A stretch of 58,829 nucleotides of DNA from an uncultured Flavobacteriales bacterium (GTDB lineage: Bacteria > Bacteroidota > Bacteroidia > Flavobacteriales > BACL11). A program made the translations under genes and the position numbers. Below, piece after piece: positions 725-42,907 of the stretch. The stretch's first letter is position 1. The number at the start of each line of letters is the position of its first letter. The stretch is from the NCBI GenBank assembly GCA_905478185.1, contig CAJQHO010000007.1, positions 1-58,829 of the forward strand. The letters are read 5' to 3'. Below the pieces are notes generated by a model. The model ran no database searches. It worked only from the letters and a program-made list of their open reading frames with translations, and was not told the origin of the DNA.

Positions 725-725
725 C

Positions 726-1193: not shown

Positions 1194-1194
1194 T

Positions 1195-1234
1195 GTTAAT
1201 CTATTGTTTATTCTATAACTATTCTTTTCTCTAC
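1195..1234 (-). repeat. Gene-junction motifs: 27-nt 3' tail GTAGAGAAAAGAATAGTTATAGAATAA (1208-1234) and 12-nt spacer CAATAGATTAAC (1195-1206)
   Basis: Both recur exactly on the + strand, at 35785-35811 and 35773-35784. Confidence 0.9.
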
Positions 1235-1695: not shown

Positions 1696-1702
1696 CTTAG
1701 TT
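1672..1702 (-). repeat. Shared 5' block plus upstream AACTAAG
   Basis: 31 nt identical to 2242-2272, including 7 non-coding bases. Confidence 0.92.
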
Positions 1703-1713
1703 TATTGTTTAAT

Positions 1714-2265: not shown

Positions 2266-2272
2266 CTTAGTT
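2242..2272 (-). repeat. Shared 5' block plus upstream AACTAAG
   Basis: 31 nt identical to 1672-1702; ATAGATTAACA lies a few bases further upstream. Confidence 0.92.
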
Positions 2273-2425
2273 GTTTGTTAATCTATTTTTTTAATTGTTC
2301 CTTTCTTAAATGGCATAATCTATCGTTTAGTATATAATAGAAAATAGGCTCTTTTGTTTTAAAATTTGCAAGTAGTTCCAAATGATATTTCTTTAATCCA
2401 ATCGTTGAATGTGAAGTTGATGGCT

Positions 2426-2929
2426 CTAATAATAGTAATATGATTCATATATTATGGCAAGTATAAAAGCTAATAATCCAAATGCTAATCCAATAATTGA
2501 TAAAGTTTTTCTGCTATTTTTCTTAAACAATCCAATAACTCCAAGAACAAGCGCTACAGAACTAAAAATCCAAGTATATACTATTGTTGTCAATAATGCT
2601 GTTACACCAAAAACTAATGCTAAAAGTCCATAAATATCAAATCTACCACTTTCTAATTTAGAGTTATTATTACCTTTTATAATATCTTTTGTTCCATCAG
2701 AGTATCTTATCATTATTACGTCTGATTTATTAATAGAAAATAAAGGACCTTCTAAATTGTCACATTTCTTATATTTAATTAAATCTGGCGTGACTTCAAT
2801 AACTTTTGCAGAAATCTCTTTTCCGTCTTTTAAAATAATATTATCACATTCTTCAAAAAATGTATTTATTGGAAAAGATGCAAGCCCAATCATAGGCAAG
2901 CAAAGTAATATAAGTAATAGTTTTTTCAT
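2426..2929 (-). CDS. Hypothetical membrane protein (small soluble domain plus about 3 C-terminal TM helices, DUF4190-like)
   Basis: Signal MKKLLLILLCLPMIGLA; CDNIILKDGKEISAKVIEV...IKYKKC domain; hydrophobic C-terminus. Confidence 0.75.
   Translation of the reverse strand: MKKLLLILLCLPMIGLASFPINTFFEECDNIILKDGKEISAKVIEVTPDLIKYKKCDNLEGPLFSINKSDVIMIRYSDGTKDIIKGNNNSKLESGRFDIYGLLALVFGVTALLTTIVYTWIFSSVALVLGVIGLFKKNSRKTLSIIGLAFGLLAFILAIIYESYYYY
2866..2929 (-). repeat. Extended shared 5' block (64 nt)
   Basis: 59/64 nt identical to 35497-35560 (+); first 44 nt match the start of 726..1193 at 42 positions. Confidence 0.92.
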
Positions 2930-3285
2930 TGTTTATCGCCTTCCCAAGTTCCTGTAAAACCAACTGATGAATTAGTCCAAGTTCCGCTTCCAGAATTACC
3001 GCTAAGTTGTCCAACAAAATTACTCCCAAGTGTGCCAGACCCAGCTGTTGCTGAAAAAGATCCGTTAGATGTTACTGAACCACTTAAATTTTGATTATCT
3101 CCAATAGAATTAGTTGAACTTCCGTTAATATCCCCAGTTGAAGAAATTGTAGCAGCCCAAACTCCAGAATCATCACCTGAATAAGTTCCAGTCCAATTTC
3201 CAGTAAAAATATTATCTTCCTCTTCTTTCTTACAAGCTGAAAATATAATTGATACTGCTAATAATGTGTAAAGTAGTTTTTTCAT
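2926..3285 (-). CDS. Hypothetical lipoprotein, Gly/Ser/Thr-rich beta domain
   Basis: Lipobox IFSAC followed by KKEEED; repeated G-x-W-x-G motifs; ATGA overlap with the next gene. Confidence 0.8.
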   Translation of the reverse strand: MKKLLYTLLAVSIIFSACKKEEEDNIFTGNWTGTYSGDDSGVWAATISSTGDINGSSTNSIGDNQNLSGSVTSNGSFSATAGSGTLGSNFVGQLSGNSGSGTWTNSSVGFTGTWEGDKQ

Positions 3286-3313
3286 AATTATATGTTTTAA
3301 AGTTTTTAAAGTC

Positions 3314-3321
3314 CAAAGATA
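3314..3321 (-). promoter_or_regulatory. Bacteroidota -7 promoter box TATCTTTG heading the gene array
   Basis: Matches TAnnTTTG, 28 nt upstream of ATG 3285. Confidence 0.7.
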
Positions 3322-3472
3322 ATGATTAAAAAGTTAAATCTTCTACGAAAAACACGTAGAGGATAATTTCTTAACTATTCCCCAATTTGTCTTAGTATCA
3401 CAGATGTATTTAGCTACATACATACTAGCACTCTTTTCATAAGGCTCGTGCTTTAGGTATTTACCTATAAGG

Positions 3473-4471
3473 TTACTCATCAAGCAATTCAAACAAATCA
3501 TCTAAGTTAGGTGATAGTATCATTTCAATTCTTCTGTTAGCACTTCTTCCTTCTTTAGTTTTATTAGTTGCAATAGGAACAAATTCTGCTCTACCAGCAG
3601 CTGTTAATTGTAAAGGATCTAAACTTGGGGTTTTCAAAAGTACTTTTACAACATTGGTTGCTCGCATCACACTCAAATCCCAATTGTCTTTTACCAAACC
3701 TCTACCGCTTAATGGTATGCTATCGGTATGTCCTTCAACTAAAATTTCCAAATCCTTTTGGCTAGCAAGTGCAGTAGCTAATTTACTTAATGCGGAAACG
3801 CCTCCACTGTTTACTTCATATTTTCCACTCGCAAAAAGCAAATCTTCTTCTAAGGAAATGTACACTTTTCCGTTTTTCTGAACTACTGTAAGTCCCTCAC
3901 CCTCTAAACCAATTAATGCTTTGGAAATAGAAGATTTAAGTGCAGTAACTATCGAATCTTTTTTATTGATAATTGTTTCTAATTCTGTTACTCTAGCAGA
4001 ACGAGCATCTAATTCTTCTTGGGCTAATTTTAGCTCATCTTCCTTTGCTTCCAATGATGCTGAGAGTTTATTAAGCTCATCTTCTTTTGCAAAAAGTTCA
4101 GTTTGTGCTTGTTCCAATTGCTCCAACAATTTCTTAGTTTCTTTGGCCTTATCAGCCATATACCTACTATTCTTGGAAGTCAATAAATCATATGCATCAC
4201 TTAGCTCGCTATACTTGCTTTGTAAAGTAGTAAGTGCAATTCCGTTCTGAACAGAGTCGTTTCTCATTTCAGAAATTTGAGATTTTAAGGAAATAATAGT
4301 TCCTTCTTGCTCCTCAATAGTTCCGTTAAGTTGCAACACTTTTTTCTCCTGTGTAGTTAAAGCTGATTTAGTAGCGTCATGTTCCATAACTAAAGCATTA
4401 TATATTTTTGGAGTTACACACGAGCTTAATACCAATAATAGTGTACTAATATAAAGAATTGACTTTTGCAT
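3473..4471 (-). CDS. OmpA/MotB-family peptidoglycan-binding lipoprotein with a long coiled coil
   Basis: Lipobox LSSC; heptad-rich middle; LLFASG, VEGHTD, NWDLSVMRA and NRRIEM motifs. Confidence 0.92.
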   Translation of the reverse strand: MQKSILYISTLLLVLSSCVTPKIYNALVMEHDATKSALTTQEKKVLQLNGTIEEQEGTIISLKSQISEMRNDSVQNGIALTTLQSKYSELSDAYDLLTSKNSRYMADKAKETKKLLEQLEQAQTELFAKEDELNKLSASLEAKEDELKLAQEELDARSARVTELETIINKKDSIVTALKSSISKALIGLEGEGLTVVQKNGKVYISLEEDLLFASGKYEVNSGGVSALSKLATALASQKDLEILVEGHTDSIPLSGRGLVKDNWDLSVMRATNVVKVLLKTPSLDPLQLTAAGRAEFVPIATNKTKEGRSANRRIEMILSPNLDDLFELLDE

Positions 4472-29220: not shown

Positions 29221-29910
29221 ATGAATGATTATTTGGTAGAATGTTGTGCAAACTCTATTCAATCTGCAATACAAGGAAAATTAGGTGGAGCAAATAGAAT
29301 TGAACTCTGCACTAATTTAGAGGTTGGAGGAATGACTCCATCAAGAGAAGATATTGCAACATTAATGGAAAGGATTAATATTCCTATTCGAATACTAATT
29401 CGGCCTCACGCTAATAATTTTATGTATTCCAAGTCTGAATTATCACAGATAATTTCTGACATTCATTTTTGTAAAAAAATTGGAGTTGAAGGGGTTGTTA
29501 TTGGCGCATTAAATATGAATGGTTCTGTCAATAAAGAACAAACTAAAGCAATGGTAAGAGCTGCAAAACCTATGAATGTTACTTTTCACAGGGCTTTTGA
29601 TGATTGCCATAATTTACAACAAGATTTAGAAGATGTAATAGATTGCGGATGTGATACACTTTTAACTTGTGGACAACACAAGAATGTCACGGATGGAATT
29701 TCTAATTTGGAACAATTAATAAAGCTGGGAAATAAACGCATCACGATTTTAGCAGGAAGTGGTGTAAACCATACCAATACAGAGGCACTTTATAAAATTG
29801 GTATTCGTAATTTTCACCTTTCAGGCAGCAGAAAAAATCAGCAAGGAAAACTAGAAACTGATGTTCTACTTATTAAAGCTGTAATTGATAAACTGGCACA
29901 AATTGCATAA
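29221..29910 (+). CDS. cutC: CutC family protein
   Basis: GANRIELC.NL.VGG.TPS, LIRP, VTFHRAFD; ATG 29221 lies downstream of the terminator. Confidence 0.92.
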   Translation: MNDYLVECCANSIQSAIQGKLGGANRIELCTNLEVGGMTPSREDIATLMERINIPIRILIRPHANNFMYSKSELSQIISDIHFCKKIGVEGVVIGALNMNGSVNKEQTKAMVRAAKPMNVTFHRAFDDCHNLQQDLEDVIDCGCDTLLTCGQHKNVTDGISNLEQLIKLGNKRITILAGSGVNHTNTEALYKIGIRNFHLSGSRKNQQGKLETDVLLIKAVIDKLAQIA

Positions 29911-32335
29911 ATATCTAATCATAGTATTGGTGATTTTTTCTGCTTGCAAAAAACAAGAAGAAACTATTTTATCACAAGAAATATCAGATTGGAAGTTTGA
30001 ATATCAGGGAGATTGGCATCAAGCAGAAGTTCCTGGAAATAACTTTTTTGATTTATTAAAACACAACTTTATACCTGACCCATTTTATGGCACTAATGAA
30101 GACAGTATTCAATGGGTGTCCGAAAGAAATTGGCAGTACAAATCTCAATTTTCAGTACCTAAAAGTACTTTAGAAAATGAAAAACAATTGTTGGGTTTTA
30201 GTGGATTAGATACTTATGCAAAAGTCTATTTGAATGATTCGCTTATTCTTCAAGCCAATAATATGTTTCGAACTTGGGAGGTAGATGTAAGTGATATCCT
30301 GAAAAAAGACAATACGCTACTCATAAAATTTGATGCAGTATCAAAAATTGAAACTGAAAAGCAAACAACTTTAGGGTACAGTCTTGCTGGTGGTAAGAGA
30401 GTTTTTACACGAAAAGCAGGCTTTCATTACGGTTGGGATTGGGGAGCAAAAATATCCCCAACAGGAATTTGGCGAAAAGTAGAACTGCAAAGTTGGAGCG
30501 ATTGCAAGATAAAAAATATTTATATTTCCCAAGATAATTTAACAGACACACTGGTCAGCTTAACAGCTAATATTGAAATAGAATCTTCAGTTGAAAAAGG
30601 AATTACGATTAAGGCTTATGATAAAGTTTGGGGAAATTTTAAACTGCAAAAAGGGAGTAATCAACTTTCTGTTATCATCCGTATTCCAAACCCTGAATTA
30701 TGGTGGCCAAATGGCTATGGAGAGCAAAAATTATATGACATCAATATTTCTATATCAGATGAAAATAGGCTGCTTGATAGCCAAACAAAAAAAATTGGTT
30801 TACGAAAAATAGAATTAATTACTGAGCAAGATTCAGTAGGAGAAAGTTTTTATTTCAAAGTAAATGATAAACCTATTTTTATGAAAGGAGCCAATTATAT
30901 TCCTCAGGATAATTTACAAAATAGAGTAACAAAAAAACATTATCGCAACTTGCTAAATGATGCAGTTAAAGCCAACATGAATATGATCAGGGTTTGGGGA
31001 GGAGGGATTTATGAAGAAGATATTTTCTATGATTTATGTGATTCGCTTGGGATTCTAGTTTGGCAAGATTTTATGTTTGCATGCGCTATGTACCCTTCTG
31101 ACTATTTGTTTTTAGAAAATGTAAAAGAAGAAGCCATCCAAAGTGTAAAGCGTTTACGCCACCACCCTTCCATTGCACTTTGGTGTGGTAATAATGAAAA
31201 TTCAGAAGGCTGGCACAGATGGGGTTGGCAAAATGCATTTACCCAAAAACAACAAGATAAAATTTGGGATGGATATCAGAAAGTATTTCAAGAGATGCTT
31301 CCAACTATAGTAGCTGAAAATTCTCAATCAGCCTACTGGGAAAGTTCTCCAAAATTTGGAAGAGGCAATCCAAAACATCAGTTTGAAGGGGATGCGCATT
31401 ATTGGGGGGTTTGGCATGATGCAGAGCCCTTTGAAAATTTAGAAACGAAAGTACCTAGATTCATGAGTGAATTTGGCTTTCAATCTTTTCCTCAGCTTTC
31501 CACCATTGTCACTTTTGCTGATAGTTTGAATTGGGATTTAAATTCGGCTGTGATGCAAAAACATCAAAAACATCCAAGAGGAAATTCCCTTATTACTGAA
31601 TATATGACAAGAGAATTTAATGTCCCAAAAGACTTTAGGAAGTTCGTTTATGCAAGTCAAATCCTACAAGCAAACGGCATGCGAATTGGCTTAGAATCTC
31701 ACAGGAGAAATCAACCTTATTGTATGGGAACTTTGTATTGGCAACTGAACGATTGCTGGCCAGTAGCCTCATGGAGTAGTCGTGATTATTTTGGCAATTG
31801 GAAAGCCTTACAATATACCGCTCAAGATGCTTTTACTCAAATCTCTCTCTCTTTAGAAAAAACTGAAAAAAACAGTTTTAATATATGGGTCATATCAGAT
31901 ACTACAAATTGTACTGACACTTTGCTTATCAACACTTACTCCTTAAAAGGGGAAATATTGTCTAGCAGTAAACAATTTGTTAAAATTCAAGCCAAATCAC
32001 AACTCATTGCTTCTGTTCCTTTTTGTAAAGATGACGAATTTATCATTTGTAAGCTAAAACAGCAAAAAGTACAATCAAAAGTTGGCTTTACAAAAGCAAT
32101 TAAAAATTATGATTTTCCAAAACCAACTATTCAGTATCAATATAATGATAATAATCTAAAGCTCAGTACAGACGTGCCCACTTTTCAGCTTTATTTACAT
32201 GGAGTAAAAGGAAATTTCTCTGATAATTTCTTTACCCTTTTGCCCGGAGAAGAAAAAATAATAGAGATTGAGACTTCAGGATTTAACCCAAATAATTTAT
32301 TAATTTGGTCGCTATACGAATTGAACAAAAATTAA
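29903..32335 (+). CDS. GH2 beta-mannosidase, lipoprotein
   Basis: GWDWG, KGANYIP, NMIRVWGGG, WQDFMFAC, WCGNNE, RFMSEFGFQS and YWQLNDCWP; lipobox FSAC. Start uncertain (TTG 29903 or 29885). Confidence 0.9.
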   Translation: MHKYLIIVLVIFSACKKQEETILSQEISDWKFEYQGDWHQAEVPGNNFFDLLKHNFIPDPFYGTNEDSIQWVSERNWQYKSQFSVPKSTLENEKQLLGFSGLDTYAKVYLNDSLILQANNMFRTWEVDVSDILKKDNTLLIKFDAVSKIETEKQTTLGYSLAGGKRVFTRKAGFHYGWDWGAKISPTGIWRKVELQSWSDCKIKNIYISQDNLTDTLVSLTANIEIESSVEKGITIKAYDKVWGNFKLQKGSNQLSVIIRIPNPELWWPNGYGEQKLYDINISISDENRLLDSQTKKIGLRKIELITEQDSVGESFYFKVNDKPIFMKGANYIPQDNLQNRVTKKHYRNLLNDAVKANMNMIRVWGGGIYEEDIFYDLCDSLGILVWQDFMFACAMYPSDYLFLENVKEEAIQSVKRLRHHPSIALWCGNNENSEGWHRWGWQNAFTQKQQDKIWDGYQKVFQEMLPTIVAENSQSAYWESSPKFGRGNPKHQFEGDAHYWGVWHDAEPFENLETKVPRFMSEFGFQSFPQLSTIVTFADSLNWDLNSAVMQKHQKHPRGNSLITEYMTREFNVPKDFRKFVYASQILQANGMRIGLESHRRNQPYCMGTLYWQLNDCWPVASWSSRDYFGNWKALQYTAQDAFTQISLSLEKTEKNSFNIWVISDTTNCTDTLLINTYSLKGEILSSSKQFVKIQAKSQLIASVPFCKDDEFIICKLKQQKVQSKVGFTKAIKNYDFPKPTIQYQYNDNNLKLSTDVPTFQLYLHGVKGNFSDNFFTLLPGEEKIIEIETSGFNPNNLLIWSLYELNKN

Positions 32336-32339
32336 ACTT

Positions 32340-33320
32340 ATGTCAAACAGAAGAAATTTTATTAAAGGAGGGGTTTTAGGAGCGGTTGGAACAGCTATTT
32401 TTCCTAAATTAATTTCTGCCATAGCACAGAACTCAAATCCTAATTCTGAAGAAGGTCACCCAATGGTTATTTCTACTTGGAAACATGGAATGCCCGCCAA
32501 TGTAGCTGCTATGGAAGTGCTGCAAAGCGGAGGCAAGGCAATTGATGCTGTTGAGGCTGGTGTAAAAATACCAGAAGCTGATCCGGAATCTATGTCGGTT
32601 GGATTAGGAGGATTGCCAGATAGAGATGGAAAAGTAACTCTTGACGCTTGCATTATGGATGAAACAGGAAATTGTGGTTCAGTTAGTTTTTTACAACATA
32701 TAAAACACCCAATTTCTGTTGCCAGAAAAGTAATGGATGAGACACCTCATGTTATGTTATCAGGGGAAGGCGCATTACAATTTGCATTAGAACAAGGTTT
32801 TCCTAAAGAAGATTTATTAACTGAAAAAGCTGAAAAAAGATGGAGAGAATGGTTGAAAGAATCTGAATATAAACCAATAATAAATGTGGAAAACCATGAT
32901 ACTATTGGACTTTTAGCATTGGATAAAAAAGGTGATATTTCTGGGGCTTGCACTACATCAGGTCTTTCTTGGAAAATGCACGGTAGAGTTGGAGATTCGC
33001 CAGTAATTGGTGCAGGGATGTATGTTGATAATGAAGTTGGTGGTTGTTGCGCTACAGGAGTTGGGGAGGCCGTGCTTAAAACTTTAGGTTCTTTTTTAAT
33101 TGTTGAGTTAATGCGACAAGGCGCTAGTCCTCAAGAAGCTTGTGAGGAAGGAATTGCTCGAATTGTAAAAAATCAAAATTATAAGGATATGCAAATTGGC
33201 TATTTGGCCATCAATAAAAAAGGAGAGCATGGTGCTTATGCTGTACATCCTTGGTTTAATTATGCTTTGCATCAAGGAGGTGAAAATCGAATGATAGATT
33301 CCTTGTCTTATTTGAAATAA
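32340..33320 (+). CDS. N4-(beta-N-acetylglucosaminyl)-L-asparaginase (glycosylasparaginase), Tat-exported
   Basis: Tat motif SNRRNFIK; SVG.GGLPDRDG.VTLDACIMD; autoproteolysis site HD/TIG; GRVGDSP. Confidence 0.93.
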   Translation: MSNRRNFIKGGVLGAVGTAIFPKLISAIAQNSNPNSEEGHPMVISTWKHGMPANVAAMEVLQSGGKAIDAVEAGVKIPEADPESMSVGLGGLPDRDGKVTLDACIMDETGNCGSVSFLQHIKHPISVARKVMDETPHVMLSGEGALQFALEQGFPKEDLLTEKAEKRWREWLKESEYKPIINVENHDTIGLLALDKKGDISGACTTSGLSWKMHGRVGDSPVIGAGMYVDNEVGGCCATGVGEAVLKTLGSFLIVELMRQGASPQEACEEGIARIVKNQNYKDMQIGYLAINKKGEHGAYAVHPWFNYALHQGGENRMIDSLSYLK

Positions 33321-35485
33321 TGAAATATTGGCTATATATATTCTGTTTGTTGTTTTCTTGTACTGATCAAAAAGTACAAGAGGTAAATCTTATCCCCAAA
33401 CCTCAAAAATTAGAGATAACTGATGGTGTATTCTCACTAAGTTATAACACAAATTTGATAGTTGACAGTCTATTTTATACTGAGTCAGACTACTTAAAAG
33501 AGATTCTCAATCTTGAATTAAAAGGGAACGGAAATACAATTGAATTATTAAAAAAAGAAGTATTACAAGAAGAAGAATTTTTTCTAAATATTTCAGAAGA
33601 AAAATTAAAAATAGAGGCGTCTACCCCTAAAGGAATAATGAGAGGGATACAAACTTTAAGACAGTTAATCACGACTAAAAAAGGAGTAGTAAAAACAACA
33701 ATTCCTTGCTTAAAAATTCATGATTTTCCAAGATTTTCTTGGAGGGGATTGCTCCTAGATTGTTGCCGTCATTTTATGGACAAAGAATTTGTAATGCGCT
33801 ATATTGATTTGTTGGCTTATCATAAAATGAATGTTTTGCATTGGCACCTTACAGAAGATCAAGGATGGAGAGTTGAAATTGAGAAATACCCAAAACTAAC
33901 TGAAATTGGAGCTTGGCGCACGGAAAAAGATGGTAGTAAATATGGTGGATTTTACACCAAAGAAGACATCAAAGAAATTTTGGCTTATGCAAAAACAAGA
34001 CATGTTACAGTTGTTCCAGAAATAGAATTCCCAGGACATTCGGTTGCTGCTATTGCCTCCTACCCTCATCTTTCTTGTTCAGGTGATAGCATAAATGTAG
34101 GTACTGATTGGGGTGTTTATAAAGATATTTACTGTGCGGGAAACGATACCGTTTTTGTTTTTATGGAAGATGTATTAACGGAGGTTATGGAATTATTCCC
34201 ATCAAAATACATTCATATTGGAGGAGATGAAGCTCCAAAATACAGATGGGAACATTGCAGAAAATGCCAGCAAAGAATTACAGAAGAAGGACTGCATGAT
34301 GCACATGAATTGCAATCCTATTTTATTACAAGAATTGAAAAATTCTTGAACGAAAACGGAAGACAACTTATTGGTTGGGATGAGATATTAGAGGGTGGTT
34401 TAGCTCCCTCAGCAACTGTGCAATCTTGGAGAGGAGAAGAAGGTGGAATTGCTGCAGCCAAAAGTGGACATGACGCTATTATGTCGCCAACTTCCCATTG
34501 TTATTTTGATTATGGACTAGATGCTACTGACCTAAAAGATGTCTATCATTATGAGCCTATTCCTGCAGAGTTAACAGAAGATGAAGCCAAACATATTTTG
34601 GGTGGAGAGTGTAATATGTGGAGCGAAAGAGCCCCGCAAGAATTAATTGATAGCAAAGTATTTCCAAGGATTTTAGCTATGAGTGAAGTGCTATGGAGTT
34701 CCTCCGAAAAAGATTATGATAATTTTTATTCTCGAGTACAAAAGCACTATCCTAAACTGGATGCACTAGGCGTAACTTATGGATTTGAAAGTGTGCCTAT
34801 TACCTCAACAGTTGTTTTTAATGCCGATAGTTTTGCCGTTTCTCTTTTTAAAGGCAGCCCTGATATCCGTTTGGAATACAGCCTTAATAATGGTACTTGG
34901 CAAGACTATACTACTCCTTTTGGCGTAAATTCAACTAGCACTTTAAAGGCCAGAGGATTTAAAAACAAAAAGCCCTACGGAGAGTTTGAGCAGGAATTAA
35001 TTAAACATATTGCTACTGGAAAGAAAGTCAATTATACTATACCTTACAACAAACATTACAAAGGAACAGGTGATAATAATTTGACAGATGGACTTTTGGG
35101 GAGTACAGAGAATTTCAGAGATGGTTATTACCAAGGATTCTCAGGAACTGATATGGAAGTGATTATTGATTTGGGTGAAATAAACACATTCTCAAAAATT
35201 AACACTGCCTTTTTTCAATACTATTTATCTTGGATAGTATTGCCAACTTCTGTGAGTTATGCAATTTCTGATGATGGAAAAAACTTTACCGAAATTGCAA
35301 ACATTACCAATGAAATTCCTCTTATGAAAGAAGGAAAGTTTAAGCATACTTTTAATTTTGAAAAAGAAAATACAAAAGCAAAATACCTAAAAGTAAGTGC
35401 TAAAACAGTTGGAAAATTACCAAAAGAGCACCCTGCTGCTGGCTCAGATGCTTGGATTTTTGTGGATGAAATAATTATAAATTAA
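33320..35485 (+). CDS. GH20 beta-N-acetylhexosaminidase with a C-terminal F5/8-type module, lipoprotein
   Basis: DFPRFSWRG..LD..RHF, HWHLTEDQGWR, HIGGDEA and GWDEI; lipobox LFSC. Confidence 0.95.
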   Translation: MKYWLYIFCLLFSCTDQKVQEVNLIPKPQKLEITDGVFSLSYNTNLIVDSLFYTESDYLKEILNLELKGNGNTIELLKKEVLQEEEFFLNISEEKLKIEASTPKGIMRGIQTLRQLITTKKGVVKTTIPCLKIHDFPRFSWRGLLLDCCRHFMDKEFVMRYIDLLAYHKMNVLHWHLTEDQGWRVEIEKYPKLTEIGAWRTEKDGSKYGGFYTKEDIKEILAYAKTRHVTVVPEIEFPGHSVAAIASYPHLSCSGDSINVGTDWGVYKDIYCAGNDTVFVFMEDVLTEVMELFPSKYIHIGGDEAPKYRWEHCRKCQQRITEEGLHDAHELQSYFITRIEKFLNENGRQLIGWDEILEGGLAPSATVQSWRGEEGGIAAAKSGHDAIMSPTSHCYFDYGLDATDLKDVYHYEPIPAELTEDEAKHILGGECNMWSERAPQELIDSKVFPRILAMSEVLWSSSEKDYDNFYSRVQKHYPKLDALGVTYGFESVPITSTVVFNADSFAVSLFKGSPDIRLEYSLNNGTWQDYTTPFGVNSTSTLKARGFKNKKPYGEFEQELIKHIATGKKVNYTIPYNKHYKGTGDNNLTDGLLGSTENFRDGYYQGFSGTDMEVIIDLGEINTFSKINTAFFQYYLSWIVLPTSVSYAISDDGKNFTEIANITNEIPLMKEGKFKHTFNFEKENTKAKYLKVSAKTVGKLPKEHPAAGSDAWIFVDEIIIN

Positions 35486-35496
35486 AAAAAATAACA

Positions 35497-35769
35497 ATGA
35501 AAAAGTTACTACTTATATTACTTTGCTTGCCTATGATTGGGGTTGCCTCTTTTCCAATAATTACAGATACTAAAAAATGTGAAAGAACAACAGTTCCTTT
35601 AGATTATGATGTTAATCAAAAGACAGATAATGAAAATAGTAAAATAGAAATAATAAAGTCACCTTTAGAAAAAGATGGTTTTTGGAAGGTTATGCGCTGG
35701 TTACGTATAATCTTTATAATCTTGTTGTCCATTATTGTTATAGCATTAGTATTGGCTGATTTAAATTAA
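35497..35769 (+). CDS. Small hypothetical membrane protein carrying the shared 5' block
   Basis: MKKLLLILLCLPMIGVASFPI is nearly identical to the start of 2426..2929; one C-terminal TM helix. Confidence 0.75.
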   Translation: MKKLLLILLCLPMIGVASFPIITDTKKCERTTVPLDYDVNQKTDNENSKIEIIKSPLEKDGFWKVMRWLRIIFIILLSIIVIALVLADLN

Positions 35770-35772
35770 TTT

Positions 35773-35811
35773 CAATAGATTAACGTAGAGAAAAGAATAG
35801 TTATAGAATAA
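35773..35811 (+). repeat. Fused junction motifs CAATAGATTAAC + GTAGAGAAAAGAATAGTTATAGAATAA (possible empty-cassette scar)
   Basis: Exact reverse-complement matches to 1195-1206 and 1208-1234; the 27-mer encodes VEKRIVIE* with no start codon of its own. Confidence 0.88.
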
Positions 35812-38673
35812 ATGAAAAAAATACTCCCTTTTATATTACTGCTTTTTATGGCTTGCCAGAAAGAGCCTAACTCTTTAACAACATATGTAAATCCTTTTAT
35901 TGGTACAGGTGGTCATGGTCATACTTATCCAGGAGCAAGTGCTCCTTTTGGTATGGTACAGCTCAGCCCAGATAGTCGTTTGGAAGGTTGGGATGGTTGT
36001 GGCGGCTATCATTATTCAGATTCTATTATTTATGGTTTTTCGCATACGCACCTTAGTGGAACTGGTGTTTCGGACTATGGCGATATTTTACTAATACCAA
36101 CTACGGGCGAACTGCTTTTAAATAATGGTGCTGCTGGTAATCCTGGATATAGTTCTACATTTTCCCATGAAAATGAAACTGCCACAGCAGGTTTTTATCA
36201 AGTCTTTTTAGAAAATTATAATGTGGATGTTGAACTAACTGCAAGTCAAAGAGCAGGCTTTCATAAATACACTTTCCCTGAAAATGAAGAAGCTCAGGTG
36301 GTACTAGATTTAGAACACAGAGACAGATTGTTGGATTATAAAATTGAATTGGTAGATAGCAATACACTACAAGGTATCCGCTATTCAGACAATTGGGCAA
36401 GAGTGCAAAAAGTGCATTTTTACATGCAATTTTCTAAAAACTTACAAAGTATCACCTTTAATGAAAAGCAATCAGTTGCAGGTATTTCTTTTGGTAAGTT
36501 ACAAAAACCTCTACTGATAAAAGTGGGAATATCAGCAGTAAGTACAGATGGTGCCAAAGCCAATTTACAAGCTGAAATACCACATTGGGATTTTGATAAA
36601 ACAAAAGCAGAAACTACTGATCTTTGGGAAAAGGAACTTAGTAAAATTATAGTGGAAGGAAAATCAGAAGAGCAAAAAGAGATTTTCTATACTGCTTTGT
36701 ATCACTCCTTGCTTAACCCTAATTTATATATAGATGTAGATGGCAATTACAATGGTACTGATTTACAAAAACATCATACTGATGATAAACATTATACTAT
36801 ATTTTCACTTTGGGACACATTTAGAGCGACACATCCACTATTTACCTTGATTCAACAAGATCGAACTAATGAATTTATCCGTACCTTTTTAAGACAATAC
36901 AAAGAAGGAGGTCAATTACCTATTTGGGAATTGGCTGCTAATTATACTGGCTGTATGATTGGTTATCATGCTATACCAGTAATTGCAGATGCCTATATAA
37001 AAGGAATTAGAGATTATGATGCAGATTTAGCTTTAGAAGCTATGGTCCATTCTGCCATGCAAGATGATTTAGGATTAAGTTGGTATAAAGACAATGGATT
37101 TATTGCAGCTTCTGATGAACCAGAATCAGTTTCAAAACATCTAGAATATTCTTATGATGATTGGTGTATTGCACTACTTGCTGACTCTTTAGGAAAAGAA
37201 GAAATTGCAACTACTTTTTATCAGAGAGGTCAGTATTATAAAAATTTATTTGATCCTTCCACTGGATTTTTCAGAGCTAAAAAAAGCCATACTTGGTTTG
37301 CTCCATTTAGGCCTGAGGAAGTAAATTTTAATTATACAGAAGCCAATGCTTGGCAATACTCATTTTTTGTTCCTCAGGATATCAGTGGGCATATAAAAAT
37401 CATGGGTGGAGCAAAAAAATATGAGCAACATTTAGATAATATGTTTAATGCTTCAACTGAAACTTCTGGTAGAGAACAGCCTGATGTTACTGGTCTAATT
37501 GGACAATATGCACACGGAAATGAGCCAAGCCATCATATGGCTTATTTATATAATTATGTAGGGAAGCCACATAAAACACAAAAGATTGTAAGGCAAATTT
37601 TGGATGAACAATATACTCACCTTCCAGATGGATTATCAGGGAATGAGGATTGTGGGCAGATGTCTGCCTGGTATGTCCTGAGTGCAATGGGGTTCTATTC
37701 TGTTACTCCTGGGCTTGATTATTACACCATAGGAACGCCACTATTTGAAAAAGCAACTCTCAATTTAGAAAATGGAAGTGCTTTTACTATTGTAGCCAAT
37801 AATGTTTCTGATGATAACATTTACATCCAATCCGCTACTTTAAATGATAAAATATTTGAGCATAGTTTTATTAAACATTCAGATATTATCAAAGGAGGGA
37901 CCCTATTTTTTGAGATGGGGAGTAGCCCTAGCAGTTGGGCAAGCAAAAGTTTTCCACTATCTTCAATTACAAAAAATGAAATAGTAGCCGTTCCTTACTT
38001 TGAAGCAGAAAGCCAAACATATACCGACAAACTAAGCGTTAAATTAGGATCAGCTGTAGGTGGAGATATTTATTACAGCATTAATGATCAAAATGAAAAA
38101 AAATATGAAAAGCCAATTATTATTACTGCTGATGCTAATATAAGTTGCCGCATTAAAAAAGGAGCAAAATGGAGCAAACAAGTTTCTGCTAATTATTACA
38201 AGACTGACAATACAAAATCTATAAAAATAGAAAGCTTATATGCAAATCAATATGCAGCAGCAGGAGATAAAACACTAATTGACCATTTAAGAGGAGGTGG
38301 GAATTATCGAACTGGGAATTGGCAAGGCTACAGAGAAGATTTAAATGTTACTGTTGATTTAGGAAAAGAAAAAGAAATTTCTACTATTAGCTTAGGCTGT
38401 ATGCAGGATATTAAATCTTGGATTTTCTTTCCTAAAAAAGTAGAGTATTATTCATCTGTTAATGCAGAAGACTTTACCTTTTTAGGAATAATAAACACTA
38501 ATTTTTCGGACAGGTTAGAAGGTAGTTTTATTGATGATTACACTCTAAAACTTCAAAATACTAAAGCACAATATATCAAAGTAAAAGCTACTAATTATGG
38601 TATTTGTCCAGATTGGCATTTAGGGGCAAGAGGTAAAACTTGGCTTTTTGTAGACGAACTAATAATAAAATAA
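35812..38673 (+). CDS. GH92 alpha-mannosidase with a C-terminal F5/8-type module, lipoprotein
   Basis: YVNPFIGTGGHGHTYPGA..PFGMVQLSPD, SLWDTFRA.HP, HGNEPSHH and GNEDCGQMSAWY. Confidence 0.95.
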   Translation: MKKILPFILLLFMACQKEPNSLTTYVNPFIGTGGHGHTYPGASAPFGMVQLSPDSRLEGWDGCGGYHYSDSIIYGFSHTHLSGTGVSDYGDILLIPTTGELLLNNGAAGNPGYSSTFSHENETATAGFYQVFLENYNVDVELTASQRAGFHKYTFPENEEAQVVLDLEHRDRLLDYKIELVDSNTLQGIRYSDNWARVQKVHFYMQFSKNLQSITFNEKQSVAGISFGKLQKPLLIKVGISAVSTDGAKANLQAEIPHWDFDKTKAETTDLWEKELSKIIVEGKSEEQKEIFYTALYHSLLNPNLYIDVDGNYNGTDLQKHHTDDKHYTIFSLWDTFRATHPLFTLIQQDRTNEFIRTFLRQYKEGGQLPIWELAANYTGCMIGYHAIPVIADAYIKGIRDYDADLALEAMVHSAMQDDLGLSWYKDNGFIAASDEPESVSKHLEYSYDDWCIALLADSLGKEEIATTFYQRGQYYKNLFDPSTGFFRAKKSHTWFAPFRPEEVNFNYTEANAWQYSFFVPQDISGHIKIMGGAKKYEQHLDNMFNASTETSGREQPDVTGLIGQYAHGNEPSHHMAYLYNYVGKPHKTQKIVRQILDEQYTHLPDGLSGNEDCGQMSAWYVLSAMGFYSVTPGLDYYTIGTPLFEKATLNLENGSAFTIVANNVSDDNIYIQSATLNDKIFEHSFIKHSDIIKGGTLFFEMGSSPSSWASKSFPLSSITKNEIVAVPYFEAESQTYTDKLSVKLGSAVGGDIYYSINDQNEKKYEKPIIITADANISCRIKKGAKWSKQVSANYYKTDNTKSIKIESLYANQYAAAGDKTLIDHLRGGGNYRTGNWQGYREDLNVTVDLGKEKEISTISLGCMQDIKSWIFFPKKVEYYSSVNAEDFTFLGIINTNFSDRLEGSFIDDYTLKLQNTKAQYIKVKATNYGICPDWHLGARGKTWLFVDELIIK

Positions 38674-38674
38674 C

Positions 38675-39976
38675 ATGACTAAAAATAAATACCTATTTCC
38701 TTTTATTGCTCTTACTTCTCTTTTCTTTTTGTGGGGGTTTCTTACAGTATTAGTAGATTTTTTAATTCCCAGATTAAAGGAGATTTTTACCCTTACTTAT
38801 TTTCAAGCTGGGCTCGTGCAATTTGCTTTTTTTATGGCTTATTTTTTACTCTCTATTCCTGCAGGCTTTATCCTTTCCAAAATTGGTTATAAAAAAGGAA
38901 TTATTTTAGGATTACTCACCATGGCTTTGGGATGTTTCTTATTCTATCCTGCAGCTGAGTTTCGAACGTTTAGCATTTTTTTGATGGCTTATTTTATTTT
39001 AGCTGGAGGTATGACTATTTTACAAGTGGCTGCCAATCCTTTTGTAGCGGTATTAGGTGATAAGAAAGGAGCATCAAGCCGACTTAATTTAGCGCAAGCA
39101 TTTAACTCCTTAGGGACAGCTATTGCCCCAGCAATTGGAGCTACCTTTTTATTAAGTGATACTATAAAAACTACTGCTGAAATAGATATTTTAAGTGAAA
39201 TTGAAAAGTCCGCTTATTATATTGCAGAGGCAGTTGCTGTGCAAACACCATTTGTTTTATTATCTGCCTGTATTGTCGTTTTGGCTGTAATTTTTGCATT
39301 TGTAAAATTGCCTTCTATTATTAAAACGGTAAGTAATAGTGGTTATAGGGAGGTGCTCAAAAACAAAGTGTTGATGATGGGTGCATTTGCAATTTTGGTT
39401 TATGTGGGAGCGGAAGTGGCAATTGGTAGTTATTTGGTAAATTACTTTATCGACATGGATATGCACTTAATTATACAAAGCACTCCATGGATGAATAATA
39501 TTGCCATAAATATTCTAAATACTGATTTGGTAAGTTTAGATAAAAGAGCAATAGTTGGAGCTTTTGTTACTTTTTATTGGAGCGGTGCCATGATAGGAAG
39601 ATTTGTTGGTGCTTATTTAACCAGTAAAAATAATCCATCAAAAGTTTTAAGGTTTTTTGCAATAGGAGCACTTTTATTCATTGTTATTTCCATGAATACT
39701 GTTGGGGTCATATCTATGTGGAGCATATTGGCTGTTGGACTTTTTAACTCAATAATGTTTCCAACTATCTTCACTTTATCTATTCAGGATATAGACGAGT
39801 TAAAACCACAAGCTTCAGGGATACTATGCACTATGATTGTAGGTGGGGCAATTATTCCACCTCTTTACGGGTTTATAACAGATTTATCTGGATTTAAAAC
39901 AGCTATGATATTACTTTTAGCTTGTTATGGATATATCTATTATTTTGCCAAATCTACTTCAAAGAATTTAGCATAA
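38675..39976 (+). CDS. Sugar MFS transporter (FucP/GluP family)
   Basis: LFFLWGF, LQVAANP, RLNLAQAFNSLG, YVGAEV and SIMFPTIF. Confidence 0.93.
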   Translation: MTKNKYLFPFIALTSLFFLWGFLTVLVDFLIPRLKEIFTLTYFQAGLVQFAFFMAYFLLSIPAGFILSKIGYKKGIILGLLTMALGCFLFYPAAEFRTFSIFLMAYFILAGGMTILQVAANPFVAVLGDKKGASSRLNLAQAFNSLGTAIAPAIGATFLLSDTIKTTAEIDILSEIEKSAYYIAEAVAVQTPFVLLSACIVVLAVIFAFVKLPSIIKTVSNSGYREVLKNKVLMMGAFAILVYVGAEVAIGSYLVNYFIDMDMHLIIQSTPWMNNIAINILNTDLVSLDKRAIVGAFVTFYWSGAMIGRFVGAYLTSKNNPSKVLRFFAIGALLFIVISMNTVGVISMWSILAVGLFNSIMFPTIFTLSIQDIDELKPQASGILCTMIVGGAIIPPLYGFITDLSGFKTAMILLLACYGYIYYFAKSTSKNLA

Positions 39977-42240
39977 TGAGAAATTATTTTTATAGTTTAC
40001 TAATAGTTCTTATTGCTTGTAGTCCTGAGCAAAAAGATACGGCAAAAAATTATTTACAATATGTAAATCCAATGGTTGGGACTAAGAATATGGGGCATAC
40101 TTTCCCTGGAGCTACCACTCCTTTCGGCATGGTTCAACTCTCTCCTACTACTAATATTCAACCCCTTTTTAAAGACGGAAAATATAATAAAGAAACTTAC
40201 AAATATTGTAGTGGATATCAATTTGAAGATACTTTAATTTATGGTTTTGCTCACACTCATTTTTCTGGGACAGGACATTCGGATTTAGGAGATTTTTTGT
40301 TGATGCCAACTGTTGGCACATTACAATCAAACAATATTCAATCTACATTTTCACATGAAAAAGAAAAGGAAGAAGCAGGATATTATTCAGTATATTTAGA
40401 AAGGTACAATATTCAAGCAGAACTTACTTCTTCTGATAGAGTTGGGTTTCATAAATACACTTTCCCCAAAACAGACTCTGCTCATTTCATTCTGAATTTA
40501 GATTACAATATCTATAATTTTGAGGGTAAAAATGTATGGACCTCCATAAGAGTGGAAAATGATTCTACAATTACAGGCTTTAGGCAAACAACAGGTTGGG
40601 CCAGAAATAAAACCATCTATTTCGCCATGAAATTCTCAAAAGCATTTACGTCTTACGGACATGAAAAAAGAGATAATACTACTTACAATGGTTTTTACAG
40701 AAGATTTAACGAAAAGGAAAATTTCCCGGAAATGGCAGGTAAAAATATAACTGCTTATTTCAATTTTGAAACAGATAATAAGGAAGATGTAAAAGTAAAA
40801 TTTGCTCTTTCTTCTGTAAGTACAAATGGAGCACTACTAAACATGGAAACTGAAGTGCCGCATTGGAATTTTGAAAAAACAAAAGAAGAAACACAAGGGA
40901 AATGGAACAAAGAACTATCCAAAATTGAAATAGAAAACATAACGGAAGAAGATGCAGAAACTTTTTATACAGCACTTTATCATACCATGTTAGGACCTAT
41001 TGTTTATGAAGATGTAGATGGGAAATATAAAGGATTAGATAAAAATATTTACACTTCTGATGGATTTACCAACTACACTATTTTCTCACTTTGGGATACT
41101 TACAGAGCGCTTCATCCTTTATTCAATATTATCCAGACAGAAAGAAATAATGACATGATAAAATCTATGTTAGCACACCAGAAACAATCTGTGCATGGGA
41201 TGTTACCTATTTGGAGTCATTATGCTAATGAAAATTGGTGTATGATTGGTTATCATGCAACTTCTGTAATAGCAGATGCAATTGCTAAAAATGTAGGAGA
41301 TTTCAGTAAAACAGATGCTTTGAATGCTTGTATTTCTACTTCCAATGTGTCTTATTTTGATGGGATTGAAAGTTACATAGAAAAAGGATTTGTTCCTGAA
41401 GATGTGAGTGGTTCTTCTGTTTCTAAAACTTTGGAATTTGCATATAACGATTGGTGTATTGCTCAAGTTTCTGACGAATTGAATGATGTAAATACTACTA
41501 AGGAATACCTAAAAAGATCAGAAAGTTACAGAAATGTATACGATAGTAAAATTGGGTTTATGCGACCAAAACTCAATGATGGAAATTGGAAAACACCTTT
41601 TGATCCTATGGATACGCACGGACAAGGATTTATTGAGGGAAATGCATGGAATTACGGTTTGTATGTCCCTCATCAAATTGATACTATGATTGAGATGATG
41701 GGAGGAAAAGATAGATTCTCTTTAAAACTAGATTCTCTTTTCGAGATAGAAATTGAAGAAAAATATATTGCAAATACAGAAGATATTACTAGAGATGGAA
41801 TTATAGGAAATTATGTGCACGGAAACGAACCTGGGCATCACATTCCTTACCTTTACAATTGGACAAATGATAGTTGGAAAACTCAAGAAAGAGTAAGAAT
41901 AATACTGAAAACTATGTACGGAAATAAGGAAAACGGACTCTGTGGAAATGATGATGCTGGGCAAATGTCAGCATGGTATATATTTAGTTCTTTAGGGTTT
42001 TATCCTGTTTGCCCAGGAAGTGATGAATATGCAATTGGAAGCCCAATGATTAAACATGGTAAAATAAATTTAGAAAATGGGAATGTCTTTGAAATTGAAA
42101 CTATTAATCAGAAGGAAGAAAATGTGTTTGTGGAAAAGATAGAACTAAACGGAGAAGTATTAAATAGAAACACCCTCTTTCATCATGAAATAAGTAATGG
42201 AGGTAAAATCACTTTTTACATGAGTAATACTCCCAAATAA
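39976..42240 (+). CDS. GH92 alpha-mannosidase, lipoprotein
   Basis: GHTFPGA..PFGMVQLSP, SLWDTYRALHP, HGNEPGHH and GNDDAGQMSAWY; ATG 39976 overlaps the upstream TAA. Confidence 0.95.
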   Translation: MRNYFYSLLIVLIACSPEQKDTAKNYLQYVNPMVGTKNMGHTFPGATTPFGMVQLSPTTNIQPLFKDGKYNKETYKYCSGYQFEDTLIYGFAHTHFSGTGHSDLGDFLLMPTVGTLQSNNIQSTFSHEKEKEEAGYYSVYLERYNIQAELTSSDRVGFHKYTFPKTDSAHFILNLDYNIYNFEGKNVWTSIRVENDSTITGFRQTTGWARNKTIYFAMKFSKAFTSYGHEKRDNTTYNGFYRRFNEKENFPEMAGKNITAYFNFETDNKEDVKVKFALSSVSTNGALLNMETEVPHWNFEKTKEETQGKWNKELSKIEIENITEEDAETFYTALYHTMLGPIVYEDVDGKYKGLDKNIYTSDGFTNYTIFSLWDTYRALHPLFNIIQTERNNDMIKSMLAHQKQSVHGMLPIWSHYANENWCMIGYHATSVIADAIAKNVGDFSKTDALNACISTSNVSYFDGIESYIEKGFVPEDVSGSSVSKTLEFAYNDWCIAQVSDELNDVNTTKEYLKRSESYRNVYDSKIGFMRPKLNDGNWKTPFDPMDTHGQGFIEGNAWNYGLYVPHQIDTMIEMMGGKDRFSLKLDSLFEIEIEEKYIANTEDITRDGIIGNYVHGNEPGHHIPYLYNWTNDSWKTQERVRIILKTMYGNKENGLCGNDDAGQMSAWYIFSSLGFYPVCPGSDEYAIGSPMIKHGKINLENGNVFEIETINQKEENVFVEKIELNGEVLNRNTLFHHEISNGGKITFYMSNTPK

Positions 42241-42241
42241 T

Positions 42242-42907
42242 ATGAAAAAAGAAGAGTTCATCCCATTAGAAAGCCAAAAACTTTCGGAAAAAGAAGTGAT
42301 AGCTAAAAGTGAAAACTACTACAAAAAAATAAGCAAGAGAAGATCTGTTCGTGATTTTTCGGACAAAGAAATTCCAAGAGAAGTAATAGAAAGTATACTG
42401 AAAGCAGCAGGAAGTGCTCCTTCTGGGGCCAACAAACAACCCTGGACTTTTTGTGTAATTAGTAATACAGAACTAAAATCGGAAATTAGAAAACTAGCTG
42501 AAATAGAAGAATATGAAAACTACCATGGTAGAATGTCCGATAGTTGGAAAGAAGATTTAGAACATTTAGGAACTGACCACATAAAAGAGTTTTTGGAAAT
42601 TGCTCCCTACCTAATAGTAGTGTTCAAAAAAGTGTACGATTTGGATGAAGAAGGAGGGAAATTACAAAACTATTATGTAAACGAATCGGTAGGGATAGCT
42701 TGTGGGTTTTTAATTACTGCTATACATCAGTCCGGATTAGTTACTCTAACCCATACGCCAAGTCCTATGAAGTTTTTGCAAACTGCTTTGGGAAGACCCA
42801 AAAACGAAAAGGCCTTTTTATTACTTCCAGTTGGTTATCCTGCTACCGATTGTAAAGTGCCTGATATAGAAAAAAAGAGTTTAGAAGAAATTAGTTTTTG
42901 GTTTTAA
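42242..42907 (+). CDS. Nitroreductase-superfamily flavoprotein, iodotyrosine deiodinase-like
   Basis: RRSVRDFS, APSGANKQPW, lid EEYENY..RM...W..DL..LGT...KEFL..AP, YYVNESVGIA.G, THTP and LLLPVGYP. Confidence 0.85.
   Translation: MKKEEFIPLESQKLSEKEVIAKSENYYKKISKRRSVRDFSDKEIPREVIESILKAAGSAPSGANKQPWTFCVISNTELKSEIRKLAEIEEYENYHGRMSDSWKEDLEHLGTDHIKEFLEIAPYLIVVFKKVYDLDEEGGKLQNYYVNESVGIACGFLITAIHQSGLVTLTHTPSPMKFLQTALGRPKNEKAFLLLPVGYPATDCKVPDIEKKSLEEISFWF

Follow-up and report, generated by a model that had tools for sequence, protein, structure and literature searches.

A recently acquired or exchanged gene unit, probably placed by host recombination, at a stop–start junction of a glycan-degradation operon in an uncultured Flavobacteriales bacterium

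Introduction

How does a small gene without any evident connection to glycans come to lie between two glycoside hydrolase (GH) genes in an otherwise tightly packed operon? The question is raised by a stretch of 58,829 nucleotides (nt) from an uncultured Flavobacteriales bacterium, referred to below as the window, which is contig C7 of a 1.66-Mb genome (G000; 32% G+C, 66 contigs). Here P0001, a gene of 90 amino acids (aa), separates the gene of a GH20 beta-hexosaminidase (33320..35485, + strand; Pfam PF00728, E 2.9e-115) from that of a GH92 alpha-mannosidase with a head-like start (35812..38673, + strand; Pfam PF07971, E 2.7e-180). The stretch around P0001 is present in marine metagenome runs from nine studies.

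An initial annotation, made from the sequence alone, had described P0001 as a solo mobile cassette without glycan-related features that interrupts the operon. The spacing is as it claimed: the gaps flanking the P0001 open reading frame (ORF) are 11 nt (5') and 42 nt (3'), whereas the rest of the operon is spaced by 1–4 nt or overlaps (4 nt, 1-nt overlap, 1 nt and 1 nt). Both hydrolases are identified by Pfam, and nothing found in Pfam, NCBIfam or the ESM Atlas links P0001 to glycans. In our interpretation, 35497..35811 is probably a recently acquired or exchanged unit that was placed by host recombination via its conserved ends.

The insert and its boundaries

The insert spans 35497..35811 (315 nt) and consists of the P0001 gene, a 15-nt leader and a 27-nt orphan 3' end. 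It opens with ATGAAAAAGTTACT and closes with ...GAATAA at the end of the relic. Its parts, and the spacer in front of it, are as follows.

35486..35496: 11-nt GH20–GH92 spacer, old flank outside the insert; 6/11 identical to metagenome locus L060, with 11 nt after the GH20 stop also in G042 and G043
35497..35769, + strand: P0001, 90-aa gene; an ORF with 84 homologue clusters
35497..35550, + strand: the 'head', a block coding for a putative signal peptide and common, at the nucleotide level, to unrelated genes; 59/64 identical to 2866..2929
35770..35784, + strand: inter-unit leader, TTT plus CAATAGATTAAC, which in arrays sits between a stop and the ATG of the next head gene
35785..35811, + strand: orphan 'tail', the last 27 nt (VEKRIVIE and stop) of a tail-type gene without the gene; 27/27 identical to 1208..1234 on the - strand

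The bounds were set in this way because the tract of high identity ends at the head and in the relic, and because the 11-nt spacer is as diverged as the flanks. Entry was exactly at a stop–start junction, at the GH92 ATG, behind the 11-nt spacer.

The relic is identical over 27/27 nt to the end of the cupredoxin-like gene 1208..1621 and to two tails on contig C51. The open frame upstream of it comprises only 10 codons, while 17 of the 21 tail copies in the genome close frames of at least 162 codons. Because a perfect tail closes so short a frame, we take 35785..35811 to be an orphan gene end. This alters two points of the initial annotation. The junction strings that it quoted are present in the sequence, the GH20 end matching the tail motif at 12/15 and the GH92 start matching the head at 13/14, but the 'tail motif' before GH92 is part of the orphan gene end and not a look-alike. 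The term 'solo' also has to be qualified, since besides P0001 the unit carries the array leader and what is left of another gene.

Head, body, stop, leader, tail and GH92 ATG follow each other here, while in the reference array the order is tail, leader, head.

1195..1234, - strand: reference array junction, read from the sequence; tail (27 nt), A, leader 12-mer, A, head of 726..1193

At the insert the leader 12-mer CAATAGATTAAC occupies 35773..35784, and the leader also follows the P0001 homologues in metagenome loci L059–L065 and L067.

The head resembles the start of a gene on the opposite strand near the beginning of the window.

2426..2929, - strand: 167-aa paralogue with only the first 30 residues (about 87 nt) in common with P0001 (BLASTP)

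A recount gave the same 59 matches in 64 nt as first reported. The similarity does not stop there, however, but runs for about 87 nt (74/87 identical) before falling to 33% ungapped identity over the next 180 nt; at the protein level only residues 1–30 align, of which 22 are identical. The paralogue fills the slot after a MKKLLYTLLAVS lipoprotein gene, and in G022 this slot is filled by a P0001 homologue.

Two head-like direct repeats bracket the insert. The first, AATGAAAAAGTTACT and AATGAAAAAAATACT, lies at 35496–35510 and 35811–35825 (13/15 identical) and the second, TTATATTACT, occurs at 35513–35522 and again at 35831–35840 (10/10).

The junction in related genomes

The GH20 C-terminus was searched in 68 genomes of the family and the junctions were then read; names for the other occupants, and for the neighbours of P0001 homologues below, are from N-termini read by eye. 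The GH20 3' end is held by 20 genomes. The junction is empty by sequence in 12 of them, with gaps of -4 to 11 nt: an ATGA overlap (-4 nt) in G058, G065, G064, G023, G068, G016, G045 and G063, and gaps of 0, 1, 3 and 11 nt in G052, G054, G022 and G042, respectively. In three further genomes (G044, G066 and G062) it is empty by distance only, the 2885–2921 nt to the GH92 C-terminal match leaving no room for an insert. The GH20 gene of G000 ends ...GATGAAATAATTATAAATTAA (EIIIN and stop), and orthologues with empty junctions have the same C-terminal ending.

Five genomes have an occupied junction, and the contents differ. G000 has P0001 and the relic. G014, from the same genus, has a 377-aa leucine-rich repeat (LRR) gene with an MKK head, a FYIYDDGTVQKRIIIE tail and a stop that overlaps the GH92 ATG. 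G049 has three genes at the site, one for a lipoprotein, one for a 251-aa LRR protein with the canonical head and tail, and one of 490 aa on the opposite strand; in G048 this 490-aa gene is the only occupant. G043 holds a 40-aa ORF followed by CAATAGATTAACA and bracketed by a 13-nt direct repeat, ATGAAAAAAATAT. The occupants vary among the 20 genomes and the site has therefore been used repeatedly. It had been proposed that related genomes be compared for empty sites or different cargo; both are found, in the 12 genomes empty by sequence and in the four others with different occupants. Being empty in some relatives and differently filled in others, the junction is a flexible site. The contigs of several relatives break at it (G013, G052).

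One of the junctions counted as empty has a peculiar sequence. The GH20 gene of G052 is one codon longer (...DEIIIIE and stop) and ends ...TATAGAATAA immediately before the ATG, like the tail–GH92 joint of G000, while other close GH20 genes end ...AATTAA. The G052 junction may be the scar of an excised tail-type occupant.

Distribution and age of the unit

A search of 41 relatives detected the mature part of P0001 (residues 19–90) in 3 of them; among the 68 family genomes it is present in 4, each time at a different locus. The copy in G000 is at the GH20–GH92 junction. That in G004 lies beside a different conserved gene and is followed by another tail relic, that in G022 is part of an array, where a MRKLLYTLLAVS lipoprotein gene precedes it and a DUF4159 gene that has the same head follows it, and that in G069 lies between two copies of TTAAAACAATAGATTAACA. 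Metagenomes provided 14 loci, four at the GH20 junction (L059–L062) and the rest in at least ten other neighbourhoods; in one of them, L067, the P0001 homologue comes directly after an integrase, a helix-turn-helix (HTH) gene, a 129-aa gene and another head gene.

L061, a metagenome contig with the same arrangement as G000, served as the reference for the age of the unit. Nucleotide identities between G000 and L061 are as follows.

GH20: 84.7–88.7%
11-nt spacer: 6/11
Head: 94.4%
Gene body: 97.3%
Leader and relic: 92.9%
GH92: 75.3–88.3%

The body of P0001 differs at 6 of 219 nt (binomial P 8e-7 at a flank p of 0.12). The divergence at synonymous sites (dS) between G000 and L061 is 0.024 for the body against 0.555 for GH20, for which the ratio of nonsynonymous to synonymous divergence (dN/dS) is 0.10. 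Judged by synonymous sites, the unit is about 20 times younger than the flanks. For G000 and G022 the corresponding dS values are 0.39 (P0001) and 0.79 (GH20). The divergence of the cargo is thus decoupled from that of its flanks, for P0001 and also for the tail gene on C28 in its comparison with G014. Empty junctions, differing occupants, the many homologue loci and the low synonymous divergence show that the unit is an insertion and mobile, as proposed. The opposite outcome, the same gene in all relatives with neighbour-like divergence, was not obtained.

Heads, tails and leaders

The ends of the unit are not private to it. With up to three mismatches, a 32-nt head pattern occurs three times in the window (0.00 expected from shuffles), and a 24-nt head occurs at 18 sites in the genome. 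These 18 sites open unrelated genes, among them those of LRR proteins, lipoproteins, a CIA30-like protein and a Por_Secre_tail protein. A head 14-mer within one mismatch opens 35 of the 1455 long ORFs and a tail 15-mer within three mismatches ends 29 of them. The tail has 21 genome copies (up to six mismatches), four of which are orphans. The leader 12-mer has ten exact copies, mostly directly 5' of genes starting ATGAAAAAA, and the usual 3' flank of P0001 homologues in metagenome loci reads TAA, T(T/G)T(T/C)AATAGATTAACA and then the ATG of the next head gene.

The heads have minor codons in common: CTA, CTT, ATA, TGC, TTG and GGG, which make up 10, 18, 26, 28, 16 and 14%, respectively, of the use of their codon families. 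The heads therefore share DNA ancestry and do not reflect AT bias, and the tails are likewise homologous DNA. In relatives from other genera, head matches of 90–96% are frequent, against 65–80% identity for GH20 and GH92 DNA. The unit belongs to a pool of exported-protein genes that spans the family, with unrelated bodies but near-identical first 45–50 nt and often near-identical last 27–60 nt.

No type IX secretion system (T9SS) domain was found in the three tail proteins scanned that end in ...FYIYDDGTVEKRIVIE (Pfam E up to 0.01, NCBIfam E up to 1), whereas the neighbouring gene 726..1193 does match Por_Secre_tail/TIGR04183 (E 1.3e-13). By its likeness to other such endings, the tail may be a sorting signal.

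Other head and tail genes

Four other head or tail genes of G000 were compared with five genomes of the same genus. All four are absent or replaced in same-genus genomes, including G001, in which the flanks are 86–96% identical. The first, a 297-aa LRR gene on C51, is missing in all five. At this joint G014 reads ...AAAAAATAA followed directly by ATGAGG..., where G000 has TAA, ATT, the full ORF from ATG to GAATAA, and ATGAGA; the insertion sits at a TAA–ATG junction and has no leader. At the second locus, on C25, G001 lacks a lipoprotein gene together with a 321-aa head gene. In G000 these have a copy of the tail on each side, in G001 there is a single tail, and the two alignments overlap by 41 nt. 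This overlap reads as the footprint of tail–tail recombination. The third, a 294-aa tail gene on C28, is missing in G001 (flanks 94–96% identical) and is 93% identical in G014 against 79% for its flanks. At the fourth locus, on C62, G001, G015 and G014 have 157, 56 and 467 nt, respectively, in place of the 941-nt body of a head lipoprotein gene. Gain, loss and replacement of genes with ORF precision thus take place at stop–start junctions, at heads and at tails.

Two further observations concern these loci. When G001 (L077) is compared with G000 C51 (L073), 88 nt at the LRR-less junction are unrelated to both G000 and G014, while the flanks are 94–95% identical. Within the 88 nt the upstream gene ends and the downstream gene has its signal peptide, and by this comparison the C51 junction in G001 appears to be a local replacement hot spot. 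Secondly, a MKKLLYTLLAVS lipoprotein-like gene repeatedly precedes a head gene of differing body, in the following pairs.

Window, 2426..3285
C23, 25679..27469
C25, about 67.5–68.9 kb
L014 (G022)
L054 (G049)

The two genes behave as one module, missing together from G001 and inserted together at the G049 junction.

Placement of the unit and alternative explanations

The reading that we favour is that the head, the tail and the stop–start junction TAA followed by ATGAAAAA act as portable homology. Host recombination, either RecA-type or driven by microhomology, would insert, swap and delete ORF-precise units at junctions resembling heads or tails. The end of GH20 (12/15 to the tail) and the start of GH92 (13/14 plus 10/10 to the head) would have made this junction receptive. 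If head–head recombination within an array released a circle and this circle re-inserted at a different head, exactly the structure that is seen would result. P0001 would then hitch-hike on the operon transcript, as it lies on the same strand and no terminator-like site was found inside the insert by a scan that is not modelled on Bacteroidota promoters. Beyond this, the counts of that scan are uninformative (21 promoter-like sites against 16.1 +/- 4.1 in shuffles and 3 terminator-like sites against 2.6). Of the proposal that the unit entered through short homology at a stop–start junction, the junction is established, while the short homology would fit the direct repeats and the parallel cases described above.

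Several points weigh against this reading. The target homology is short (13/15 and 10/10, with a 3-nt offset), below what RecA recombination is generally reported to need, and no recombination intermediate, circle or excision product was seen. Head-gene arrays adjoin a tyrosine integrase on C23 and in L067. The body of P0001 has a dN/dS of about 0.5–1.3, indicating weak or mixed constraint on the protein. In the GH20 protein tree the clade that contains all occupied junctions is unresolved, with forks below 80, and the order of occupied and empty lineages is not given. L059 is 99% identical to G000 over 35394–35784 and then continues with a 66-nt relic and unrelated genes. Finally, the history of the relic can be read in two ways, as a remnant of a G014-type gene (23/27 to the G014 tail) or as a part that travelled with the unit.

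The first of these two histories leads to the alternative that survives best, a cargo swap in which P0001 and the leader replaced a G014-like head/tail LRR gene from its start codon as far as the point 27 nt short of its stop. We regard this as possible but somewhat less than probable. G014 has its 377-aa head/tail gene at the same place, homology between G000 and G014 resumes at the first base of the relic, and the 23/27 match of the relic to the G014 tail is close to the 85–86% identity of the flanks. The longer relic (66 nt) kept by L059 and the orphan state of 4 of the 21 G000 tails, which indicates that tail genes decay, point in the same direction. On the other hand, the relic is identical over 27/27 nt to three other tails of G000, and orthology with G014 is thus indistinguishable from family-wide conservation. 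L060–L062 have the same relic joint, TTAAC/GTAGAG, despite a dS of 0.555 for GH20 and 0.024 for P0001, which fits joint travel of gene and relic, and the P0001 homologues beside a different gene in G004 and L066 also have a tail relic downstream. The joint was also inspected for microhomology: TTAAC/GTAGAG is one base off the product of an AACA-mediated deletion, and no claim is made from it.

A dedicated site-specific system, either integron-like or encoded by an island integrase, with the leader CAATAGATTAAC(A) or TAA followed by ATGAAAAA as its recognition site, is unlikely to have placed the unit. It would account for the neighbourhood of the head-gene arrays on C23 and L067, which adjoin a tyrosine integrase together with an HTH gene and a 129-aa gene, for the relic of the 129-aa gene that borders the array at window 1..3500, for the ORF-precise boundaries, and for two relic joints that both begin right after ...TTAAC. 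These two joints nevertheless differ by one base (TTAAC/G and TTAACA/A). The window is without a PF00589 integrase and the insert without an attC-like inverted repeat, the best pairs being 70–79% complementary or 10–14 nt long. The C51 insertion has no leader and the C25 case likewise does not involve one, and the end points of the C25 indel fall within two copies of the tail, the pattern expected of homologous recombination.

It is very improbable that P0001 has long been part of the operon and was lost by most lineages, its likeness to other genes being that of a common signal peptide in an AT-rich genome. Starts of the ATGAAAAAA type are indeed common (111 of 1455 ORFs of at least 100 aa) and four metagenome loci have the same arrangement. 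The 12 sequence-checked empty junctions, however, fall in both well-supported clades of the GH20 tree, the dS of P0001 is about 20-fold below that of the flanks, homologues occupy at least 11 other neighbourhoods, and the minor codons of the head are identical in unrelated genes.

Assembly and read-level support

A mis-join of the metagenome assembly at repeated heads and tails, which their multi-copy nature, a summed unitig depth of about 25- to 170-fold that of the flanks over 35484..35527 and the contig breaks of G013 and G052 might suggest, is the least credible explanation of all and is set aside in view of the same gene order on independent contigs and of unitigs that bridge both sides of the unit. 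The order GH20–P0001–relic–GH92 recurs on L061 and L062, and the arrangement is found on L060–L062. In Logan, a 303-nt unitig with 0–1 differences covers 35512..35814, from the body to the GH92 ATG, in four runs from four studies. Other unitigs bridge GH20 into the head (35371..35536 and 35215..35536) or run from 35785–35791 into GH92. Unitigs break at the head and at the tail, where the raised depth is as expected of multi-copy sequence.

Two further results are hints only, as both come from mixed-community unitigs at 88% likeness. A low-depth (2.39) joint of 35474 to 35803 in X9 resembles an empty-site variant, and X7 and X10 have contigs that keep to GH20 as far as 35486 before continuing with 965 nt unlike the window.

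L062 is itself composite. Its GH20 gene is like that of L060 (99.7%), but in the relic and the first 39 nt of the GH92 gene it matches G000 at 100%. Either lineages have recombined in nature or the contig is chimeric.

The P0001 protein

The N-terminus of P0001 reads MKK followed by a hydrophobic stretch of 12 residues and was modelled as a helix (residues 2–18). AlphaFold2, run with 35 sequences, predicts a second helix, hydrophobic and C-terminal, at residues 57–89, whereas residues 20–49, in the conserved middle part, are predicted as disordered, with a pLDDT below 50; the mean pLDDT is 62. The family comprises 84 clusters at 58–94% identity. In 35 aligned members Gly15, Ala17, Ser18, Phe19, Pro20, Asp24, Tyr37, Lys42, Glu51, Ile53 and Glu58 are invariant. 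These 11 residues and 20 nearly invariant ones are located in the N-terminal part, while the hydrophobic C-terminal part varies. Taken together with the dN/dS of 0.5–1.3, the strictly conserved residues suggest mixed constraint.

Searches with P0001 gave nothing above the Pfam threshold, nothing meaningful in NCBIfam and no match to a T9SS C-terminal domain. An assignment to DUF2606 was considered and rejected, as the Pfam match is sub-threshold (E 0.0088, 16.2 bits against a cut-off of 25.4). The ESM Atlas returned unnamed clusters at 0.76–0.81. We take P0001 to be a small envelope protein, probably exported and membrane-anchored.

The operon and the array at the start of the window

The remaining genes of the operon and the nitroreductase gene that follows on the same strand, as identified by Pfam, are these.

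29885..32335, + strand: GH2 gene
32340..33320, + strand: Asparaginase_2 (glycosylasparaginase type)
38675..39976, + strand: major facilitator superfamily (MFS) transporter
39922..42240, + strand: second GH92
42242..42907, + strand: nitroreductase

The first 3500 nt of the window hold, on the - strand, an array of genes for exported proteins, most of which start ATGAAAAAACTACTACTTATATTA. Apart from the genes already listed, it includes the following.

2..724, - strand: collagen-like Gly-X-Y repeat protein, array member
726..1193, - strand: the Por_Secre_tail protein
1714..2265, - strand: CIA30-like gene, array member
2926..3285, - strand: lipoprotein gene with a MKKLLYTLLAVS start, array member
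3367..3474, - strand: relic, the last 36 residues of the 129-aa gene (tblastn, 80.6% over 36 aa; the full C23 copy is 84.5% identical)

The cupredoxin-like gene of this array (1208..1695, - strand) seems frameshifted: the ATG of its head at 1695 opens a frame of 41 codons, and the copper-binding domain follows from a GTG at 1621 in another frame. It could be a pseudogene or an assembly error. Within the array, near 2296..2316, lies a truncated gene start, ATGCCATTTAAGAAAGGAACA, of the MPFKKGTSGNP type.

An island at about 25.3–32.3 kb of C23 encodes a tyrosine integrase, an HTH-like 85-aa gene, the 129-aa gene and exported proteins, and also holds a MKKLLYTLLAVS lipoprotein gene and a 439-aa head lipoprotein gene. 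The PF00589 match is at C23:30612-31145, and on C23 as in L067 the 129-aa gene stands between the integrase and the head-gene array. The island is flanked by two copies of a 92–94-aa gene starting MPFKKGTSGNP..., which may mark its attachment site. Judging from these genes, window 1..3500 looks like a decayed copy of the C23 integrase island. PF00589 matches in the genome are confined to C62, C49, C10 and C23, with none in the window (C7), and no tRNA was found either.

Comparison with known systems

The unit lacks the defining features of integron cassettes and of insertion sequences (IS) or miniature inverted-repeat transposable elements (MITE). It is similar to integron cassettes in being small, in comprising mostly promoterless single-ORF units of unrelated functions, in forming arrays and in its presumed transcription from upstream, but here the boundaries are the start and stop codons themselves. 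The inverted repeats in 35300..36000 are 10–30 nt long and 70–91% complementary and none brackets the 3' end in the manner of attC, and there is no IntI-type recombinase with an attI, C7 having no PF00589 match. With regard to IS and MITE elements, the insert has no terminal inverted repeats and no ORF of at least 60 aa besides P0001, although no genome-wide transposase search was made. The flanking repeats, which would be the candidates for a target-site duplication, are direct and consist of the two genes' own signal-peptide codons.

The flexible genomic islands of aquatic bacteria, which are of additive and replacement types (PMC4033161, PMC4898812), come closer. As far as the consulted parts of these accounts describe them, a conserved site likewise has different content in close relatives and homologous recombination is likewise invoked. 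Here, in contrast, one stop–start junction within an operon serves as the site, each unit consists of one or two ORFs, and the homology lies within the coding ends of the cargo (signal peptide and tail) and not in flanking core genes.

Tandem arrays of LRR genes in Flavobacterium psychrophilum vary in copy number between isolates, according to the portion of the report that we consulted (PMC8400371). These too are consecutive LRR surface genes; they differ among closely related strains and are collapsed when short reads are assembled. What that portion describes is copy-number variation in one array; shared heads or tails on unrelated genes and insertion at an operon junction do not appear in it. 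A search of full texts, excluding supplements, found no account of secretion-signal ends that are conserved at the nucleotide level on unrelated genes and serve as cassette boundaries.

Conserved coding ends are familiar from families of surface antigens. In the Helicobacter bab/hop, Anaplasma msp2, Neisseria pil and Mycoplasma lipoprotein genes the ends are conserved and the middles are exchanged by gene conversion. There, as in our proposal, conserved coding ends serve as homology arms that move variable middles between loci. The middles in those families are, however, homologous variants of one protein, whereas the bodies here are unrelated (a 90-aa anchor protein, LRR proteins, cupredoxin-like and CIA30-like proteins, and lipoproteins), and unlike the antigen families the units are also inserted at loci where no family member had been before.

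A more far-reaching version, which we put forward tentatively and consider rather doubtful, is that head, tail and leader form a selected 'plug-and-play' system. Secretion signals would then have a second role as portable arms for recombination, or as the sites recognised by some further recombinase. Genes for unrelated exported proteins would, as ORF-precise cassettes, enter stop–start junctions, exchange cargo and pass between genera of a streamlined marine family in an integron-like manner without attC or IntI.

Significance

The locus gives a base-pair view of how a marine bacterium with a small genome alters its set of exported and surface proteins with no classical mobile elements involved. 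Entire ORFs enter stop–start junctions, even one within a conserved operon for glycan degradation, and these ORFs are far younger than the DNA around them. Two practical points follow for genomes of this type: repeated heads and tails break short-read assemblies at exactly these junctions, and odd small genes inside operons need have no functional link to the operon. The junction is also a natural landing site for recombination assays. If heads and tails are homology arms, secretion signals would shape the plasticity of the genome, which would explain why they are conserved at the nucleotide level across genes and genera.

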